NCBI GenBank assembly: GCA_002938255.1
Contig: PTLB01000003.1
Span: forward strand, 1-34,386
Direction of reading: 5' to 3'
Length of the DNA stretch: 34,386 bases
Source: Alphaproteobacteria bacterium MarineAlpha5_Bin3
Lineage (GTDB): Bacteria; Pseudomonadota; Alphaproteobacteria; HIMB59; GCA-002718135
Below, piece after piece: positions 1 through 25,067 of the stretch. Both the position numbers and the translations under genes were made by a program. Under the pieces are notes generated by a model. That model made no database searches and was not told where the DNA came from. It saw nothing but the letters and a program-made list of their open reading frames with translations. Each line of letters begins with the position of its first letter. The first letter of the stretch is position 1.

Positions 1-156
1 GTAAATATTATACTTATTTCTGTAATGTTTTTTAAATATTTTTTGTGGATATATAATTTTATGTTTACCGATAAGTTGATTAATATCCTCCCAATTATGA
101 TATAGTTTTACGGATTTGGCGGCTACAAAAGCTACTCCAAGTGATGAGTGTTTTTT
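1..156 (-). pseudogene. C-terminal fragment of an FGGY-family carbohydrate kinase (runs off the window edge)
   Basis: The minus-strand frame reads KKHSSLGVAFVAAKSVKLYHNWEDINQLIGKHKIIYPQKIFKKHYRNKYNIY, which resembles the FGGY C-terminus (SxLGAAxxA...W...P...Y..Y). An in-frame TGA at 159-157 precedes it, so the upstream part of the gene is missing. Not in the ORF track; family call is by eye. Confidence 0.55.
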
Positions 157-184
157 TCATAAGTTAATATTACCCCATCTAAGA

Positions 185-336
185 CAATTATACCACTTTG
201 AAATCCCCCCTATTTGTATAGTTGCAGACACTCTCTAGTCGCAAATTCGTCAAAAACGAGAAATTACTGCAGACACTTTTGAAAAAGTCTTATATATTGC
301 GACTTGGGGAACATAGTTTAGGAAACAGAGCGCCCC
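185..336 (+). repeat. Non-coding element copy 1 (putative att remnant)
   Basis: Aligns along its length with 1450-1614; the terminal 30 nt (307-336) match 1585-1614 at 29/30. Internal direct repeat TGCAGACACT at 223 and 268. Confidence 0.85.
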
Positions 337-344
337 GCTACAAT

Positions 345-785
345 TTATAGTTCGTAAACTTCCCAATTAGTTTTTTTTGAAACTCTGTCATATAGAGATT
401 TTGCTCTTAGATTATCATTGCGCGTTATCCACCTAACCAAACCCCATCCTTTTTCTTTAGAAATTTTATCTAATTTTAAAATAAGTTTCTCACCAATTTT
501 TAAACCTCTGTAGTCAGGAGAAACAAACAAATCATCTAAAAAACCAATATCCTTTCCTCTTAAAGGACTTGGCATTCTTCTGTAATGAGCAAAGGCAACT
601 ATTTTTTCTTCAAACTCACAAATCAATCCATTAAGTTCATGCTGTTCATCTGTCAACCAACTCCATATGGTATTTAATATAGTCTGTGTCATTTCAACTT
701 TATAAAACTCAGCATAACCGTGATAGAGTTTTTGCCAGTCTTCTTTATCGTTAAGTTTTATGCTTCTAATAAATGTTGTGTCCAT
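345..785 (-). CDS. GNAT-family N-acetyltransferase
   Basis: Acetyl-CoA binding motif LDDLFVSPDYRGLKIG and C-terminal NLRAKSLYD. Start moved from 821 to the ATG at 785 (MDTTFIRS) because the extra codons lie in the repeat element. Confidence 0.9.
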   Translation of the reverse strand: MDTTFIRSIKLNDKEDWQKLYHGYAEFYKVEMTQTILNTIWSWLTDEQHELNGLICEFEEKIVAFAHYRRMPSPLRGKDIGFLDDLFVSPDYRGLKIGEKLILKLDKISKEKGWGLVRWITRNDNLRAKSLYDRVSKKTNWEVYEL

Positions 786-922
786 AAGACAATTTATAGC
801 ATAGCACGAAGTCTCCTGCAAAAGTCCTGCAAAAATATTGATTTCCTTACACGAAGTTTTTGAAAATGTGTTGGTTTTTGTGGTATAAATGACTAGAGGC
901 GAGTAACAGAACGCCCCATTTA
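785..922 (+). repeat. Non-coding element copy 2 (divergent member, putative att remnant)
   Basis: 905-922 AACAGAACGCCCCATTTA is identical to 1602-1619. CACGAAGT at 805 and 850; TCCTGCAAAA at 814 and 825; TAAGACAATT (785-794) is shared with 180-189; TTTTGAAAA lies at the same distance from the core as in copy 1. Confidence 0.7.
793..801 (-). promoter_or_regulatory. Extended -10 promoter for the GNAT gene (probably leaderless)
   Basis: Minus strand TGC-TATAAA ends 7 nt before the ATG at 785; no Shine-Dalgarno. Confidence 0.45.
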
Positions 923-950
923 TGACTAATAATTATTTTAGTATTATAAT
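922..950 (+). promoter_or_regulatory. Sigma70-type promoter for the lipoprotein gene (probably leaderless)
   Basis: ATGACT(922-927)-17 bp-TATAAT(945-950), ending 5 nt before ATG 956; no Shine-Dalgarno. Confidence 0.5.
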
Positions 951-955
951 TAAAT

Positions 956-1429
956 ATGAAAACCAAGTTAATTGCACTGTTTGTTATTTCTACATTTTTA
1001 GTTTCTTGTAATACTACGAGACCAACAGACGTAAAAAAATCTGACACCCAAAAAATTACTTCAATTAAATACGGTAATATTATTTCATCAATGCCTGTAA
1101 AAATTAAAGGTGAAGGTAGCGTAATCGGTGCAACAGCAGGAGGATTAATAGGCGGTCTTCTAGGTACTCAAGTATGCGGTGAAAAAGAAACTGCTGGAAC
1201 TAAATGTCAAGATATTGCGATTGTCTACGGAACGATAGGTGGTGCAACTATTGGATATGTTACAGAAGCATTATTAGGCAATCATGATGGTTATCAATAT
1301 ATTATTGACATTGATAATAACAGTGAAGATGTTGCCATAGTTCAAGGAAATAAAACTCTTTTAGAAAATGGTGGGAGAGTAGTAATTATCTATGGAGATA
1401 CAATCAGAGTTCTACCTTATACAGAATAA
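956..1429 (+). CDS. Outer-membrane lipoprotein with glycine zipper (SlyB/Pcp-like)
   Basis: Signal peptide with lipobox LVSC; two GxxxG-rich segments (GATAGGLIGGLLG, GTIGGATIG); SlyB-like C-terminal IVQ...GGRVVII. Confidence 0.8.
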   Translation: MKTKLIALFVISTFLVSCNTTRPTDVKKSDTQKITSIKYGNIISSMPVKIKGEGSVIGATAGGLIGGLLGTQVCGEKETAGTKCQDIAIVYGTIGGATIGYVTEALLGNHDGYQYIIDIDNNSEDVAIVQGNKTLLENGGRVVIIYGDTIRVLPYTE

Positions 1430-1449
1430 ACTTACCTTGAAATAAATTT

Positions 1450-1619
1450 CAATTATACCTCTTTGAAATCTCCTTATTTGTATAGGTAGCACACAGACAG
1501 AAGTCGCAAAATCATCAAAAACACGAAATCAGAGCACACAGAAAAAGCACACAGGCGCAAAAAACTATTATATTATGTGACATTGGGAACATAGTTTAGG
1601 AAACAGAACGCCCCATTTA
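1450..1619 (+). repeat. Non-coding element copy 3 (putative att remnant)
   Basis: Homologous to 185-336. AGCACACAG at 1488, 1533 and 1546; ends GGGAACATAGTTTAGGAAACAGAACGCCCCATTTA. Confidence 0.85.
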
Positions 1620-1625
1620 AAAAAT

Positions 1626-2261
1626 ATGTCAAAAAAAAAAATAGGATATGATGATGCTTATTCATTAAAGACACCCGAAGATTCCATAAAACTCTACAAA
1701 AAATGGGCACAAGCCTATGATGAAGATTTTGCTTTAAGTTCAAATTATCTTTCACCTGCTAAAATTTGTAGTTTTTTTAATAAACATGCAAGAAATACTG
1801 ATACTCCAATTCTTGATGTTGGTGCTGGAACCGGTTTGGTTGGTGAATGTTTAAATAAAACAGGCAATAAAAAAATCATTGGAATAGATATATCTCCAGA
1901 AATGTTGGAACAAGCAAAATTAAAAGGATGTTATTCTTCCCTAGTGAGTGCTAATGTTACAAAAAAAATTCCATTAAAAAATAATTCTGTTGGAGCAGTT
2001 GTAAGTGCAGGAACTTTTACTCATGGGCATGTGGGACCAGATGCTTTTGATGAACTCTTACGTATTACAAAACCGGGAGGATTATTCGTTTTATCCATTA
2101 ATTCAAAAGTATTTATCAAGGGTGGTTTTCAAGAAAAATTCTCAAGAATTAAAAACAGTATTTCTGTTCCTATTTTTAATGAATTTAAAGCTCATGGTAA
2201 TAATAAAGATGAAAACTTTAGCAAAATAAAAATATTTGCATCTATTTTTCGTAAAAAATGA
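1626..2261 (+). CDS. Class I SAM-dependent methyltransferase
   Basis: Motif I ILDVGAGTG, GIDISPEML, and RITKPGG. Confidence 0.9.
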   Translation: MSKKKIGYDDAYSLKTPEDSIKLYKKWAQAYDEDFALSSNYLSPAKICSFFNKHARNTDTPILDVGAGTGLVGECLNKTGNKKIIGIDISPEMLEQAKLKGCYSSLVSANVTKKIPLKNNSVGAVVSAGTFTHGHVGPDAFDELLRITKPGGLFVLSINSKVFIKGGFQEKFSRIKNSISVPIFNEFKAHGNNKDENFSKIKIFASIFRKK

Positions 2262-2292
2262 AAAATGGAAATTAATACAACAAACTGTTAAT

Positions 2293-3234
2293 TTAATTTT
2301 CCTGTAAACCCAACAAATGTTCTTTAATACTTTCCGATAGTGCCAATAAATCGTAACCTCCTTCCAAAAAAGATATAATTCTTCCTTGGCAATGTATATT
2401 TGCAATTTCTATAATTTTTTTTGTTAAATCATAATAATCTTTTGATTCTAAATTAATATGCGCCAAAGGATCTCTTTTATGCGCATCAAAACCAGCGGAT
2501 ATTAATATTATTTCAGGTCTAAATTTATCTATATTATTCAAAATTTTATTTTCTAATATCTTTATAAAATCCTTTCCTTCTGTTCCTGCTAGAATTGGTG
2601 CATTGAAAATATTTCCCATTCCTTTTTCCTGTTCTGAACCTGTGCCTGGAAATAATGGGAATTCGTGTATAGAACCATAAGCAACTGTTTCGTCTTTAAA
2701 GAAAATTTCTTGCGTGCCATTTCCATGATGAACATCGAAATCAATAATCGCAATCTTATTTATTTCATATTTGCTTTGTAAATACCTTGCAGTAACTGCA
2801 ACATTATTTACAAAACAAAATCCATTTGCTCTAACAGTTTCTGCGTGATGACCTGGTGGCCGAACAGCGCAAAATATTCTTTTTTCATTTTCCCTAATAA
2901 GGCTGTCTGCGGCAGCAATACCAGCTCCACAAGATCTTAATATTGCTTTTTTACTTTTGGGACATAAAAGTGTATCGGCATATGGCTCTTTTTCTATTCC
3001 CGTTAATCCAGAATTTGGAATTAATGAAAAAATATTGTTTATATGTGTTGATGGATGTACCAGATAAATATTACGAACATCTGCTAATGGTGCATTTTTA
3101 ATATCTATATCAATACTGCTTATATTTTGAATGGATTTAAGAATAATCTGTACACGTTCTTTTTTTTCTGGGTGATTTGGACCATTATCTTTGAGTAAGC
3201 AGTCTGAGTGTGTGTAAACAATTATTTTTTTCAT
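2293..3234 (-). CDS. Zn-dependent histone deacetylase-family (AcuC/APAH-like) amidohydrolase
   Basis: HPE, RPPGHHA, GFC, DFDVHHGNGTQ, FPGTG, SAGFDAH and LEGGY motifs; GGAG just upstream. Confidence 0.95.
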   Translation of the reverse strand: MKKIIVYTHSDCLLKDNGPNHPEKKERVQIILKSIQNISSIDIDIKNAPLADVRNIYLVHPSTHINNIFSLIPNSGLTGIEKEPYADTLLCPKSKKAILRSCGAGIAAADSLIRENEKRIFCAVRPPGHHAETVRANGFCFVNNVAVTARYLQSKYEINKIAIIDFDVHHGNGTQEIFFKDETVAYGSIHEFPLFPGTGSEQEKGMGNIFNAPILAGTEGKDFIKILENKILNNIDKFRPEIILISAGFDAHKRDPLAHINLESKDYYDLTKKIIEIANIHCQGRIISFLEGGYDLLALSESIKEHLLGLQEN

Positions 3235-3387
3235 TACTCCATCTTACATTTATTTTATTAGTTTCAAAATTCGTTATCCGTATTTGAATAGCTAGTACAC
3301 ACTTTAACTGAATACTCTTACGAAAAACTGTATATACTATGTTTAAGTGATGTTTCTTCTAATTACAGAACATAGCAATATTTAAAA

Positions 3388-3846
3388 ATGAAAATCCACT
3401 ATTCTCAAATCTTAAAAAAAAACATGCTAAATGTTTTTCGCGATGTTCTAAAAAATATAGAAGTAAATGGTTTGCAAGAAGGCCATCATCTTTATATATC
3501 CTTTAAAACAGATAATAAAAAAGTTGTTATTCCAAATTGGTTAAAGGAAAAACATCCAAAAGAAATCACGATAGTCATTCAATATGAATATTGGAATTTC
3601 AAAGTAAAAAATGACTCATTCAATATTGGGCTATCATTTAATGACATAAATGCAGACATATCTGTTCCATTTGATTCTGTAATCTCTTTTGCCGATCCAT
3701 ATGCAAATTTTGGATTAAAACTTATAAATGAAGAAATTAATAAAAAATTAAGTGACAAAAAACCAAAAAGAAAAAAATCTGTTATTAAAAAAAATAAAGA
3801 CAAAGATAATATAATCGAATTTCAAAAGTTTAAAAAATTAAGATAA
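3388..3846 (+). CDS. sspB: ClpXP protease specificity-enhancing factor SspB (alphaproteobacterial type)
   Basis: HHLYISFKT, P.EITIVIQ, LSFN, FADP and a C-terminal NIIEFQKFKK tail, typical of alpha-SspB. Confidence 0.9.
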   Translation: MKIHYSQILKKNMLNVFRDVLKNIEVNGLQEGHHLYISFKTDNKKVVIPNWLKEKHPKEITIVIQYEYWNFKVKNDSFNIGLSFNDINADISVPFDSVISFADPYANFGLKLINEEINKKLSDKKPKRKKSVIKKNKDKDNIIEFQKFKKLR

Positions 3847-4467
3847 ATATTTAGAATTCACAACTTTGCCAGATTCATAAGTTATAATAAATGGGCTGCC
3901 AGTTGGAATCTCTATTTTTGAAATTTCTTCTGCTTTATACAAGCCAACTTGTATCATCGATGCTCGCAGTGAATTGCCATGGGCTGCTATTAACACATCT
4001 TGACCCTCATTGATTTTAGGTTCTATAAAGTTGATAAAATATGGCTTAACTCTTGTAACAACATTTTCCAGACTTTCTCCTCCAGGAGGAGAAACATCGT
4101 ACGAACGGCGCCATATGCGAACTTGCTCTTTACCGTATTTATTAGCAGTCTCTTCTTTATTAAATCCAACCAAATCTCCGTAATCCCTCTCATTTAAACT
4201 TTGGTCTTTGGTCATAAGAAGTTGACCGTCACTCCAAAATTGTTCCAAGTTCATTTCTTTAATTGCTAACTCAGCCGTTTTGGTGGCTCTTTGCAAAACA
4301 CTACTGAAAATTACATCAATATGCACTTTATTTTTTTTCATTAATTGACCAGCGACTTTGGCCTCTGCAATGCCCTGTTCGGTCAATGGTACATCTTCCC
4401 ATCCAGTAAATCGATTTTCAAGATTCCATTGACTTTGGCCATGGCGTAAAAGGATAAGGTTATTCAT
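3838..4467 (-). CDS. gpmA: 2,3-bisphosphoglycerate-dependent phosphoglycerate mutase
   Basis: LRHGQSQWN, RFTGW, LNERDYG, WRRSYD and AHGNSLR. Confidence 0.95.
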   Translation of the reverse strand: MNNLILLRHGQSQWNLENRFTGWEDVPLTEQGIAEAKVAGQLMKKNKVHIDVIFSSVLQRATKTAELAIKEMNLEQFWSDGQLLMTKDQSLNERDYGDLVGFNKEETANKYGKEQVRIWRRSYDVSPPGGESLENVVTRVKPYFINFIEPKINEGQDVLIAAHGNSLRASMIQVGLYKAEEISKIEIPTGSPFIITYESGKVVNSKYLS

Positions 4468-4536
4468 AAAATAAATATTTTTAATTCAATGATTGAGTTT
4501 ATGTTATACAAAAATATAATTAAATTAATACAAAAA

Positions 4537-5922
4537 ATGAAAAAAAAATACAGAATAGAATTTGATAGTTTGGGAAGCAAAAAAATAGACTCTACCCAAC
4601 TATGGGGAGCACAAACACAGCGATCACTTGAAAATTTCAAAATTGGTAATGAAAAAATTCCAAAAGAAATAATCATTGCATTTGGTCATCAGAAAAAAGC
4701 TGCCGCTCTTGCCAATATAAAAATTGGCAAATTAAATTCTAAAATCGGAAAAGCGATCATTGATGCCTGTAATCAAATTATCAATTTAAAGCTTATTGAT
4801 GAATTTCCACTTTCTATCTGGCAAACAGGTTCAGGAACGCAAACCAATATGAATGCTAATGAAGTTATTAGTAATTATGCTATTAAAAAGTTGAAAGGGA
4901 AAATTGGATCTAAAAAACCAGTCCATCCTAATGATCATGTTAATCTATCCCAATCTTCTAATGATACTTTTCCAACAGTAATGCACATAACTTGCAATGA
5001 ATTGTTACAAGATAAATTAAACATATCATTACGTAATTTGATTAAAGAATTAAAATCTAAGTCACAAAAATTCAACAGAATTATAAAAATTGGTCGAACA
5101 CATACTCAAGACGCTATACCTTTAACATTAGGACAGGTATTTTCAGGATATTTAGAACAAATAAAAAATAATCAAAAAAGAATATTACAAGCTCAAAAAG
5201 AACTGCTTTATTTAGCCCAAGGGGGAACAGCTGTTGGAACAGGTATGAATGCTCCTAAAAATTTTGATAAAATTTTTTGTAAATACTTATCATTATTAAC
5301 TAAAAGCAAATATTTTCCTGCCCCTAATAAATTTGAATCCATTGCATCGCACGATCCCATGGTAAACCTATCTGGAAGTCTTAATACTCTTGCTACTTCT
5401 CTTTTAAAAATATCAAATGATTTACGTTTTTTAGCATCAGGTCCACGTTCAGGTTTAGGAGAGTTAAAGTTGCCTGAAAACGAACCTGGATCTTCTATAA
5501 TGCCTGGTAAAGTAAATCCAACACAAATTGAGGCGTTATCAATGGTGTGCACCCAAGTAATTGGAAATCACACAACAATTACTATTGCTGGATCGCAAGG
5601 TCACTTTGAACTAAATGCTTTTAAACCAGTGATTATTTTTAATAATTTACAATCAATACATTTACTTTCTGATTCAATTGACAGTTTTATTAAATACTGT
5701 CTTCGAGGTTTAAAGCCAGATGTTTATCGAATAAAACAACATTTAGATAATTCTTTAATGCTTGTCACTGCTTTGAATGAACATATAGGGTATGACAATG
5801 CTGCAAAAATTGCAAAAAAAGCTTTCAAAGAAAACTTAACACTTAAAGAAGCAGCTATAAAACTTGGGATGATAGAAGCAAATGAGTTTGATAGGATAGT
5901 TCAACCAAAAAAAATGATTTAG
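4537..5922 (+). CDS. fumC: Class II fumarate hydratase
   Basis: WGAQTQRS, QTGSGTQTNMNANEV and signature GSSIMPGKVNP. Start placed at MKKKYRIEFD (4537) rather than 4489. Confidence 0.97.
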   Translation: MKKKYRIEFDSLGSKKIDSTQLWGAQTQRSLENFKIGNEKIPKEIIIAFGHQKKAAALANIKIGKLNSKIGKAIIDACNQIINLKLIDEFPLSIWQTGSGTQTNMNANEVISNYAIKKLKGKIGSKKPVHPNDHVNLSQSSNDTFPTVMHITCNELLQDKLNISLRNLIKELKSKSQKFNRIIKIGRTHTQDAIPLTLGQVFSGYLEQIKNNQKRILQAQKELLYLAQGGTAVGTGMNAPKNFDKIFCKYLSLLTKSKYFPAPNKFESIASHDPMVNLSGSLNTLATSLLKISNDLRFLASGPRSGLGELKLPENEPGSSIMPGKVNPTQIEALSMVCTQVIGNHTTITIAGSQGHFELNAFKPVIIFNNLQSIHLLSDSIDSFIKYCLRGLKPDVYRIKQHLDNSLMLVTALNEHIGYDNAAKIAKKAFKENLTLKEAAIKLGMIEANEFDRIVQPKKMI

Positions 5923-10610: not shown

Positions 10611-11545
10611 AAAGATGAATTAATTATATTGTGTATCAAATTATCAAAACTAATATTTTTATGTTTTAATTGTTCGGGGACTAAAGAAATAGATGTCAAA
10701 CCTGGTTGTGTGTTAATTTCTAAAAAATATATATTTTTATTATCATATAAAAAATCCGATCTACTTAAATTCCTGCACTTTATTGTATCATGAACAATTT
10801 TTGCATATTTGAGACAATTATCATAAATTTTGACAGGTAATTTAGCTGGCAGAATATGCCTAGAAAATCCTTTTGAATACTTTGACTGATAATCATAAAA
10901 ATAATTATTAGAAATTATTTCGGTAACCTCCACTGCTTCACTTATATTTTCTTTATTGATAACAGCTACCGTTAACTCCCTACCTGCAATATATCTTTCT
11001 ATTAATAGTTCATTGTGTTTTTTATAAATATTATGATTGTTTTCAATATTGCGTACAAAATTTTCTAAATCTTTAGAGTCTTTTATAATTTGTACACCGT
11101 AACTTGAACCGCTAGAAACTGGCTTAACTACAAAAGAATTAAATTGTTCAAATATTTCTCTTATTTTAATTTCATCTAAATTTGTAGCTTTCAAAAGAAA
11201 AGATTCAGCAGTTAAGATCTTTGTATTTTGAATTTTTTTTTTCGTTAAAAATTTATTAAAACCAATATTTGAAGTTATTGAATCTGAGTGTGTATATCTA
11301 ATTTTTTTGTTTTCTAATATTTTTTGTATTGTACCATCTTCTCCAAAAGTCCCATGCAGTGCATTAAAACACAAATAATCATTGTTATAATGATTAATAT
11401 CTTCAGAAAATGTTTGTGGTTTTACTAATAAAGAATCAAAACTAATATTTAGATTGGTTAATGATCTTTTAATTTCTTTAGCAGTATTTAAGGAAATCTC
11501 ATGTTCTTCGTTAAAACCACCTTCTAAAATCAAGATTTTTTCCAT
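10607..11545 (-). CDS. ddl: D-alanine-D-alanine ligase
   Basis: ALHGTFGEDG, GSSYGV, FYDYQSKY and LEINTQPGLT. ATG at 11545 overlaps the murB stop (TAATG). Confidence 0.96.
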   Translation of the reverse strand: MEKILILEGGFNEEHEISLNTAKEIKRSLTNLNISFDSLLVKPQTFSEDINHYNNDYLCFNALHGTFGEDGTIQKILENKKIRYTHSDSITSNIGFNKFLTKKKIQNTKILTAESFLLKATNLDEIKIREIFEQFNSFVVKPVSSGSSYGVQIIKDSKDLENFVRNIENNHNIYKKHNELLIERYIAGRELTVAVINKENISEAVEVTEIISNNYFYDYQSKYSKGFSRHILPAKLPVKIYDNCLKYAKIVHDTIKCRNLSRSDFLYDNKNIYFLEINTQPGLTSISLVPEQLKHKNISFDNLIHNIINSSL

Positions 11546-24657: not shown

Positions 24658-24700
24658 ATACTAGGTTAATTACAGAGTGTTCTATAAATGTTCACGATAT

Positions 24701-25043
24701 AGATGGTGCATAAGCCGGGTTCTGTAAATTTATAAAAAAAATTTGATGATCATTAATCTAGAGCAAGTGTCACCACTTGCTTCAAGCAGCCTACCCGAGT
24801 AACTTAACTGGAAATTAATTGTTACTCCTATTTGGCCTTGCTCCTAAAAGGGTTTTCACTGCCATAATTGTTACCAATTATGCGGTGAGCTCTTACCTCA
24901 CCTTTTCACCCTTACCTTCAAAAAGGCGGTATGTTTTCTGTTGCACTTTCCCTAAGCTTGCACTTGCCAGGTATTACCTGGTTTTATTTTCCAGCGGAGC
25001 CCGGACTTTCCTCTTGATTGCTCAAGCGATCATCGCACCATCT
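24701..25043 (-). ncRNA. rnpB: RNase P RNA (type A)
   Basis: Minus strand has GAGGAAAGTCCGGGCTCC near the 5' end, GAAAGTGCAACAGAAA internally and ACAGAACCCGGCTTA near the 3' end; ends AGATGGTGC/GCACCATCT form P1. Confidence 0.97.
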
Positions 25044-25067
25044 TAATAAGAAAATAATGGAAAAAAA

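Follow-up and report, generated by a model that had tools for sequence, protein, structure and literature searches.

The flexible genomic islands of SAR11-like plankton lie by tRNA or transfer-messenger RNA (tmRNA) genes. The available parts of the papers on them report no canonical mobile elements, and one paper calls the mechanism unresolved. In SAR11 and Methylopumilus islands, tRNA-end repeats stand between 'gene cassettes', and the available sections of the reports give no mechanism (PMC11796062, PMC10872708). Here we analyse a comparable locus in Alphaproteobacteria bacterium MarineAlpha5_Bin3 (assembly GCA_002938255.1). The window is the whole stretch analysed, the first 34,386 nucleotides of contig PTLB01000003.1 (C23 in our numbering). 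Close to its start lie three non-coding elements of about 150 nt, each of which ends in the 13-nt core AACAGA(A/G)CGCCCC and follows one small gene or gene fragment. With a probability of roughly 0.65, we read this as an array of non-autonomous integrative mini-elements of one or few genes, stacked at the 3' end of a permuted tmRNA gene and dependent on help in trans.

Our locus shares several features with the additive flexible islands of streamlined plankton: the probable position beside a tRNA or tmRNA gene, 3'-end repeats between cassettes, and the stated absence of canonical mobile elements. As far as the accounts of those islands were available, they report repeats but no arm architecture, no matching words (the 8-nt repeats described below) and no cognate integrase. 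In an island paper on what is presumably our clade, the word tmRNA is absent from the main text (term count 0).

Tandem islands at the tmRNA gene ssrA have been found in Dehalococcoides, where 15 islands without an integration module were suggested by the authors to be cis-mobilizable (McMurdie et al. 2011, PMC3146451). According to the part of that paper available to us, these islands involve a one-piece tmRNA, a serine recombinase and a T-loop site (PMC3146451). In contrast, the gene is permuted here and its coding piece ends with the core, the integrases belong to the tyrosine type, the arms bear words, and the median unit is shorter than 1 kb. The tycheposons of Prochlorococcus are similar in other ways. 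They have a tyrosine recombinase, use seven tRNA genes including tmRNA, show partial tRNA copies between neighbours, and leave degenerate remnants in the islands of streamlined marine hosts (Hackl et al., 10.1101/2020.12.28.424599). However, tycheposons are 4-200 kb long and carry hallmark replication genes (PMC10872708), and the available text on them does not describe single-gene arrays with word-coded arms (10.1101/2020.12.28.424599).

Three further systems are instructive. Cis-mobilizable elements (CIMEs), which accrete at the attachment (att) sites that integrative and conjugative elements (ICEs) use, are flanked by att sites, lack recombination genes, share their arms with an autonomous element and stack in tandem. 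CIMEs are decayed multi-kb ICEs of Firmicutes that move together with a neighbouring ICE. Our units differ: most hold one gene, a genome with such units almost never contains the autonomous partner as well, and every unit has its own arm word. Integron cassettes resemble our units in being mostly single, promoter-poor genes with their own recombination site, in one orientation and at one locus, and in depending on an integrase that they do not encode themselves. However, here there is no IntI beside the array, no attI and no folded attC; instead we find double-stranded lambda-type arms and a core taken from an RNA gene. In the attP site of phage lambda, the core is flanked by a P arm with separated arm-type sites and by a P' arm with three such sites in tandem, about 50-80 bp from the core; an A/T-rich spacer lies between core and arm sites. 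Our elements likewise have separated and tandem arm sites around a core, with an A/T-rich stretch between. Unlike lambda, they are about 1 kb long, have neither int nor xis, and differ from each other in their arm word.

What appears new relative to known tRNA and tmRNA islands is the combination of single-gene, probably trans-dependent cassettes with word-coded arms. The accessible portions of the literature describe neither word-coded arms, nor single-gene arrays at a permuted tmRNA gene, nor the integrase family discussed below, and supplementary island maps may bear on this. As in tRNA and tmRNA islands generally, the window has displaced direct repeats of the gene's 3' end, one at the far end of each unit; an integrase gene inside the island, which such islands have, is absent from it. 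As in cis-mobilizable elements, the units are bounded by att sites without a recombinase gene, and arms 1 and 3 are of a kind also found in an integrase-bearing element (in relative G063). The parts of the array are as follows, with arms named after their lambda counterparts:

1-156, minus strand: what is left of the cargo of unit 1, the C-terminal part of an FGGY-type sugar kinase gene; a start-less frame of 52 codons that runs off the contig start
185-323, plus strand: P-type arm of unit 1 (class 1), with the word TGCAGACA at 223-230 and 268-275 and GTCGCAAATTCGTCAAAAAC between; aligns with the arm after the G063 integrase gene
324-336, plus strand: core copy 1, AACAGAGCGCCCC, the variant with G at position 7
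345-785, minus strand: GNAT acetyltransferase gene, cargo of unit 2 (PF00583, E 8e-15), with its stop codon 9 nt past core 1
786-904, plus strand: P-type arm of unit 2, with CACGAAGT at 805-812 and 850-857 and TCCTGCAA at 814-821 and 825-832
905-917, plus strand: core copy 2, AACAGAACGCCCC
956-1429, plus strand: gene for a small predicted lipoprotein, cargo of unit 3; the protein begins MKTKLIALFVISTFLVSC, with a lipobox (LVSC) read by eye
1450-1601, plus strand: P-type arm of unit 3 (class 1), with AGCACACA at 1488-1495, 1533-1540 and 1546-1553, that is at -115, -70 and -57 from the core
1602-1614, plus strand: core copy 3, AACAGAACGCCCC, the last of the array

The preliminary description of this DNA had pointed out the three elements, their common orientation and their common ending, and the pattern is real. 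The core (AACAGARCGCCCC) has three copies in the window, all on the plus strand, and none in 100 dinucleotide-preserving shuffles of the window. There is no fourth copy anywhere in the bacterium's own assembly (874,025 bases in 81 contigs, 80% complete). Element copies 1 and 3 are identical at 29 of their 30 terminal nucleotides, as reported before, and at 47 of the last 55; they can be aligned over their full length of about 150 nt (73% identity over 166 columns). The exact 18-mer common to copies 2 and 3 (AACAGAACGCCCCATTTA) was also reproduced, and the small unrelated genes that precede the elements (FGGY fragment, GNAT, lipoprotein) were found as stated.

The core is the end of the tmRNA gene. 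Of 41 genomes searched, 39 have a match to the Rfam family alpha_tmRNA, and in 37 of these relatives the exact core stands at the 3' end of the match, ending 3-4 nt inside the match end by coordinate comparison. The other two (G019 and G030) have the match without the exact core. In the Rfam alignment of a relative from the same genus, the core takes up the 3' part of the loop GGCAACAGAA, which is conserved, and the coding piece's terminal stem contributes its 3' strand. This agrees with the form that the preliminary description gave for the end of the coding piece, an AACAGAA loop followed by a C-rich strand, and its proposed check of whether ssrA ends in the core comes out in favour. The core is the identity block common to the element and the tmRNA gene. 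In the wider set of 101 relatives, which served for the core, arm and PF00589 searches, the exact core occurs in 87 genomes and a reversed control pattern in none. Two to six copies are present in 36 of the 101. Throughout the 34 arrays examined, copies on one contig share their strand and come after the tmRNA gene.

The gene order of relatives shows where the bacterium's own tmRNA gene should be. In the same family, the order is thyA(-), folA(-), tmRNA(+), a variable array, a deacetylase gene (-), sspB, gpmA and fumC. The window holds the right part of this order, including the two downstream genes that had been named beforehand (sspB by PF04386, fumC as read from the sequence). The own thyA-folA pair lies at the very start of contig C36, which is broken inside folA. 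Given this synteny and the break, the own tmRNA gene most likely sits in the assembly gap immediately left of the window, in agreement with the earlier proposal that ssrA lies to the left on the plus strand. The window is the start of its contig and nothing further left can be read; the repeats explain the assembly break at this point. ARAGORN finds no tRNA or tmRNA in the window. Rfam searches (the window at gathering scores, positions 1-2400 at E <= 10) give only chance-level matches for the elements.

Only 13 nt of each element of about 150 nt are tmRNA-derived; the other ~140 nt are a lambda-like attP arm. The 110 nt upstream of displaced cores are unrelated to tmRNA and belong to families that recur across genomes. 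Hence the earlier view of the elements as displaced 3' fragments of the tmRNA gene holds for the core, while the remaining ~140 nt are the element's own arm. Folding of the three arms as DNA, on both strands, is no better than that of shuffled sequences (z -1.5 to +1.4), and no arm matches an Rfam family. The arms are therefore neither attC-like sites nor structured RNAs.

Each arm carries a short word in a fixed layout. In class-1 arms, the commonest kind (including window copies 1 and 3), an 8-nt word stands at about -115, -70 and -57 before the core. Complete class-1 units have the same word three times in tandem on the other side, at about +58, +70 and +81 past the preceding core. In a second arm class, the words are found at -152, -141 and -39 and at +68 and +79. 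The word itself varies from unit to unit (GCAGACA, GCACACA, GCATACA, GCATAGAG, GCACGCA, CTACGAAG, ACACGAAG, GTGCCGT, ACGCGTC, GAACACA and others).

We surveyed 61 units from 34 arrays at 40 loci, most of them loci chosen for showing two or more cores. Tandem words are present in the left arm of 41 units, in the right arm of 42, and in both arms of 31. In 24 of these 31 units, the left and right words agree, although the CTACGAAG unit, which is common to related genomes, supplies eight of the 24, so that the matches are not all independent. When right arms are randomly re-dealt among units, a mean of 3.5 and a maximum of 10 agree (2000 trials). The matching units use eleven distinct words. Metagenome contigs fetched by their arm motif repeat this result, with agreement in all three units that have words in both arms. 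Going by their layout, the words would be the arm-type sites to which a lambda-like (heterobivalent) integrase binds with its N-terminal domain.

The units are small. Their median size is 963 bp (range 129-5649), and 32 of the 61 hold a single open reading frame (ORF) of at least 60 aa. The 95 distinct array ORFs are a mixed set of zinc ribbons, domains of unknown function, acetyltransferases, methyltransferases, a type I restriction system, a C5 methylase and an ArsP permease; one of the 95 matches PF00589. Some units consist of arms alone between two cores: one of 152 nt (L075, in G067, 2969-3121) and one of 129 nt (L068, in G022, 3757-3886). Units 2 and 3 of the window are bounded by cores and contain only the GNAT or the lipoprotein gene, without a recombinase gene. 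An arm of the arm-2 type bears other cargo in G006.

Two metagenome contigs (L237 and L268) show a variation on this theme. About 100 nt past the arm motif, the class-1 arm leads into a core of another sequence, AACAGAAGTTCCC; next come a perfect hairpin of 12 bp with a T-run and, after it, ACACGAAG words. These may be members of the same element family aimed at the tmRNA end of another lineage.

The distribution of the elements speaks for a single kind of site. All arm BLAST matches in the relatives are on core-bearing contigs, and all but two (in G093 and G078) lie beside a core or inside an array. In the own genome, core and arm are confined to the window, unlike repeats of the dispersed kind such as miniature inverted-repeat transposable elements. 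The elements are not scattered over the genome, a pattern which had been named as one that would speak against them. In two genomes, a piece of an array stands beside a different island: at L235 (G073:C2, at ~3264) and L022 (G024:C4, at 1501), a class-1 arm with CAGTGAAG lies together with a core and the CTACGAAG unit at a place other than the tmRNA gene. Both pieces adjoin genes that in G065 flank a tRNA-Gly island with an integrase.

Arms travel. Arm 3 of the window shares 86% identity, over 132 nt, with an arm of G045, a genome from another genus, and was not found in the four genomes of the window's own genus. The DNA of thyA-folA is only 73.5% identical within the genus. Arms that are more alike across genera than such genes are within one must have moved between lineages after those lineages split.

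Gene content between cores varies, both among relatives and among marine populations, as had been predicted. The window stretch or part of it is present in 20 public runs, and we compared Logan contigs of four of these with positions 1-3400 at a likeness of at least 90%. Here every metagenome joint is a single contig at a depth of 2-10 and shows presence only. One contig of run X15 (depth 9.6) joins 904 to 1602, skipping 697 nt, with 18 nt that fit both sides. This is a form without the lipoprotein unit, exactly from core to core, and thus the kind of empty site that was to be looked for. In X15, X17 and X20, the depth over 913-1482 is near zero, and the GNAT and methyltransferase genes are covered. 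Other joints connect GNAT to the methyltransferase gene (777->1623) and arm 1 to arm 3 (207->1474). Only one joint 'goes back' (1471->208), and it runs from arm to arm.

A search for a tyrosine integrase beside the array gave none in the window and only two in the arrays of relatives, in G047 and G063. Matches to PF00589 exist in 91 of the 101 genomes, and by coordinates only that of G047 lies inside a tmRNA array. The G047 gene is frame-broken and belongs to a class-2 unit with TGTGCCGT in both arms; the same word marks an integrase-less 1.3-kb unit in G075. Among species-representative genomes, the G047 integrase has no close relative besides its own record. The resolvase domain PF00239 occurs in two of the 101 relatives; the copy in G063 is a 239-aa resolvase-type gene inside the element described next and not a large serine recombinase.

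The element of G063 (~5 kb) is the most informative one. It has the tmRNA core, GCATAGAG three times in tandem and six ORFs, and then, on another contig, a class-1 arm with GCATAGAG at the usual offsets and a core. Pfam and PHROGs recognise no replication hallmark in it. Its last gene, next to the arm, is split by two contig ends into a 113-aa N-terminal and a 185-aa C-terminal piece of a protein of about 392 aa. The two pieces are 83% (N) and 82% (C) identical to a full-length 392-aa metagenome protein (P0003). Searches of Pfam, PHROGs and PDB sequences with the pieces gave nothing significant, and a PDB profile search gave weak results. The family retains the R...K...R-H...Y pattern. An AlphaFold model of this type of integrase is of moderate quality (mean predicted local distance difference test score, pLDDT, 67; predicted template modelling score, pTM, 0.36), with scores of 80-90 in the N-terminal sheet-plus-helix domain and the helical second domain. 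Among PDB fold matches, those listed with an E of up to 0.001 belong to tyrosine recombinases (Tn1549 Int, XerA, Cre, XerH and full-length lambda Int), with a best E of 2.7e-5, probability 1.00 and TM-scores of 0.3-0.43. More distant members of the family pass the Pfam cut-offs for PF13102 (SAM-like) and PF00589 (catalytic). It is this fold search and these distant relatives that settled the family as tyrosine recombinases. The G063 protein is thus, by its modelled fold, probably a divergent, previously unannotated tyrosine integrase.

This family is rare among our genomes. A set of 1.84 billion representative proteins contains 41 clusters of it at E <= 1e-30, and in the 187 genomes of the whole order it is present only in G063, with a remnant in G102 that has no core near it. 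The G063 arm recurs in G061 on a unit without an integrase. Arms 1 and 3 of the window can be aligned with this arm of G063, starting at the first word and reaching to the core.

Two other recombinases were considered as the enzyme of the array and rejected. The own genome's integrase on contig C73 came under suspicion for its position, as it stops 9 nt short of a contig end. It shares only 35% identity with the G047 enzyme, and its relatives are found at tRNA-Phe and tRNA-Gly. This 337-aa phage-type integrase (C73, 10-1023, minus strand; 9 nt from the contig start) lies by aminotransferase and P-II genes without an adjoining tRNA, and its relatives at tRNA-Phe and tRNA-Gly are 50-61% identical. 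At the other end of C73 (2750-2897), the motif ATCGTTCAAC..GGGTCGGAAGTA..GAAGGAACGC occurs twice, which we take to resemble a tandem glutamine riboswitch. The second candidate was the conserved Xer-like recombinase of family f1. It is found in 47 of 60 f1 genomes and in none of 40 f2 genomes, yet near-identical arms occur in both families, so that a resident host integrase is unlikely. The f1 protein is a divergent tyrosine recombinase of 352-365 aa (for example L233, 3314-4372, minus strand, and L234, 3433-4491, minus strand). No XerC/XerD-grade matches were seen in f1 genomes, and f2 has the usual pair of 329 aa and 286 aa; the f1 protein may be a single-recombinase dimer-resolution system.

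Phage genomes were scanned as well. A scan of IMG/VR with the core plus one base gave no phage attP among the 80 matches listed, almost all of which are chance. One of these matches (L177) lies inside a primase-like gene. On another IMG/VR contig (L188, 242,646 nt), a tmRNA-like terminal hairpin ending in the core stands at 10805-10850, in an intergenic gap with phage-like genes on both sides. This could be a piece of tmRNA carried by a phage, or else an attachment site.

From these observations, we can sketch how such an array would work. Each unit would consist of a core, a left arm (which may be missing), one or few cargo genes, a right arm and the next core. A tyrosine integrase would exchange strands within the 13-bp core AACAGAACGCCCC, and its N-terminal domain would bind the words. 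Since an integrase is almost never resident, the integrase-less units would be non-autonomous derivatives that need mobilisation in trans. Rare integrase-bearing elements, with two arm classes or more among them, would be both their source and what they depend on, and the single-gene units would be mobilised in trans to this day. The preliminary description had set successive integrations and a trans-mobilised system of mini-cassettes side by side as alternatives. In our reading both apply at once and they are not rivals; the integron-like mechanism attached to the second does not stand, as there is neither an attC-type fold nor a resident integrase.

A number of observations weigh against this reading. 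The own assembly has no alpha_tmRNA match, and with the gene unassembled it is synteny that places it beside the window. There is no integrase in the window, the one PF00589 match of the own genome (on C73) belongs to another family, and the G063 integrase gene is interrupted by an assembly gap. The moderate quality of its model and the TM-scores also count here, as does the absence of the family from 50,697 phage records and from IMG/VR scans. Units with words in one arm are not predicted by a simple integration model, yet 11 of the 61 units have them only in P and 10 only in P', and such units are common in metagenome contigs too. The partial dependence of the word matches and the thin coverage of the metagenome joints have been mentioned. 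No circular junction or tandem-copy joint was seen in the Logan contigs, where rare forms are invisible.

The state of the window itself belongs with these points, as its three units look partly decayed. Left-arm words are absent from both complete units, so that a complete att pair for excision is missing. The cargo of unit 1 is a gene fragment, core 1 is the variant with G at position 7, and arm 2 has a single ACACGAAG where G006 and metagenome contigs have two in tandem. With left-arm words missing, cargo fragmented and an arm-2 word lost, the units of the window may be immobile. Moreover, in G006 the GNAT gene (85% aa identity) directly adjoins the methyltransferase gene (81%) without an arm or core between them, as it does in one X20 contig. 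Arms must therefore be lost or gained by other routes too.

The decay suggests a different history, in which larger integrase-bearing islands were whittled down by deletion to one gene and a right arm, and no small cassettes ever moved, in trans or otherwise. Such fossil scars would account for the FGGY fragment, the lost arm-2 word, the lack of left-arm words and the variant core. They would also fit the degenerate core beside the methyltransferase gene in L243 and L253, and G006, where the arm between GNAT and methyltransferase was lost or never present. We nevertheless consider this history unlikely. Random deletion should not spare both arms, yet 24 of 31 units keep matching arm words, including units of 129-1000 bp. 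Scars also leave unexplained why the same arm type carries different cargo across genomes, why arms from different genera resemble each other more closely than housekeeping DNA does within the genus, and why a core-to-core absence variant of the lipoprotein unit exists. Another way to exchange genes without any site-specific recombinase is homologous recombination, where arms and cores are mere homology anchors for RecA-dependent replacement with environmental DNA. Integrases indeed hardly occur (1 of 101 and 2 of 187 genomes), metagenome contigs contain joints from arm to arm (for instance 207->1474), and the available parts of two papers favour this route for related streamlined plankton (PMC10734472; 10.64898/2026.10.07.757358). 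However, homology alone explains neither the direct repeats of the tmRNA end, nor the fixed offsets of the words, nor their agreement within units, nor the arm beside the G063 integrase, and the X15 joint lies exactly at the 18-nt common block. We regard this explanation as quite improbable.

The remaining two explanations fare worse. The elements could be regulatory or small RNA (sRNA) modules (promoter, terminator or sRNA) duplicated beside flexible genes, with a likeness to the tmRNA end that is convergent or derived from a terminator. The terminal hairpin of tmRNA with its T-run is terminator-like, gene starts directly adjoin the arms (GNAT has its start codon at 785, next to arm 2), and the left end of the arm reads GGTATAAT on the reverse strand. 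But a consensus scan finds 13 promoter-like sites against 11.3 in shuffles and no terminator-like sites, and neither the folding of the arms nor Rfam indicates a structured module. Since the words and the confinement to tmRNA arrays would also be left unexplained, such modules are very improbable. A true integron-like platform, finally, in which a host integrase captures cassettes through folded single-stranded sites, would produce single-gene units in one orientation at one locus, as observed. But no tyrosine recombinase gene stands beside the array, where relatives have thyA, folA and tmRNA on the left flank. The sole widespread recombinase, that of f1, is absent from f2 despite the shared arms, and the arms lack an attC-like fold. 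This explanation has almost no chance of being right.

The array of trans-dependent mini-elements can be extended to a more general, tentative idea, which we hold to be possible without expecting it to be true. The streamlined marine Alphaproteobacteria of this order could run a tmRNA cassette platform that is integron-like in its working and uses lambda-type sites. Dozens of elements of ~1 kb, most with a single gene, would each have a private 8-nt 'address word', repeated five to six times over the two arms. A matching member of a diversified, hitherto unannotated tyrosine-integrase family, present in the cells for a short time only, would insert and excise each element. If so, the platform would be a main route of gene gain and loss in genomes that have been described as free of mobile elements. 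If the pairing of word and integrase holds, it would also constitute a natural family of orthogonal site-specific recombinases with short, programmable arm sites. The locus itself suggests a way in which single genes can still be swapped by a streamlined marine bacterium whose genome has hardly any genes of mobile elements. It offers a testable mechanism for one clade: a 13-bp core, countable word sites, a candidate integrase family, and natural presence/absence variants. For annotation, the interval between tmRNA and sspB is a hot spot of gene flux.

The cargo genes and the flank add some detail. The frame at 1-156 (minus strand) has no Pfam match; compared pairwise with the own genome's 494-aa FGGY kinase, it shows 45% identity with residues 435-480, over 47 aa (E 2.6e-6). 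The protein encoded at 956-1429 has only weak glycine-zipper matches in Pfam, and a homologue is absent among the fetched loci. To the right of the array follow:

1626-2261, plus strand: class I S-adenosylmethionine (SAM) methyltransferase gene, the first gene past the array (PF08241, E 2e-18)
2293-3234, minus strand: deacetylase-family gene, right flank of the array (Pfam)
3388-3846, plus strand: sspB, right flank (PF04386, E 1e-30)
3838-4467, minus strand: gpmA-like gene, right flank, named by eye from the sequence
4489-5922: fumC-like frame of 477 aa, past the right flank, named by eye from the sequence

The block from 2293 to 4467 is conserved, with the same gene order in relatives of the same family. 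The methyltransferase gene is patchy, with homologues in four fetched loci from three genomes. The arm before it has a different word in each near relative (metagenome contigs L243, L253 and L271 with TGCAGACAC and TGCATACAC; AGCACACAG in the window), and in place of an intact core L243 and L253 have the decayed form AACAAAACTCCCA.

Some further observations concern the surroundings. A second GNAT gene, 65% identical in protein to that of the window, lies at 121-555 (minus strand) on the own contig C52, at the contig start and in an unrelated neighbourhood without arm or core. The stretch TTTTTTTCATAAGTTAATATTACCCCATCTAAGA at 148-184, left of arm 1, recurs left of an arm in G046, where it is the start (ATG AAA AAA) of a minus-strand zinc-ribbon gene. 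In the window, this start enters the FGGY fragment in another frame, as after a deletion. Far from the array, at 24695-25045 on the minus strand, lies a full-length bacterial RNase P RNA of class A (307.6 bits), the sole Rfam family above the gathering score in the window.

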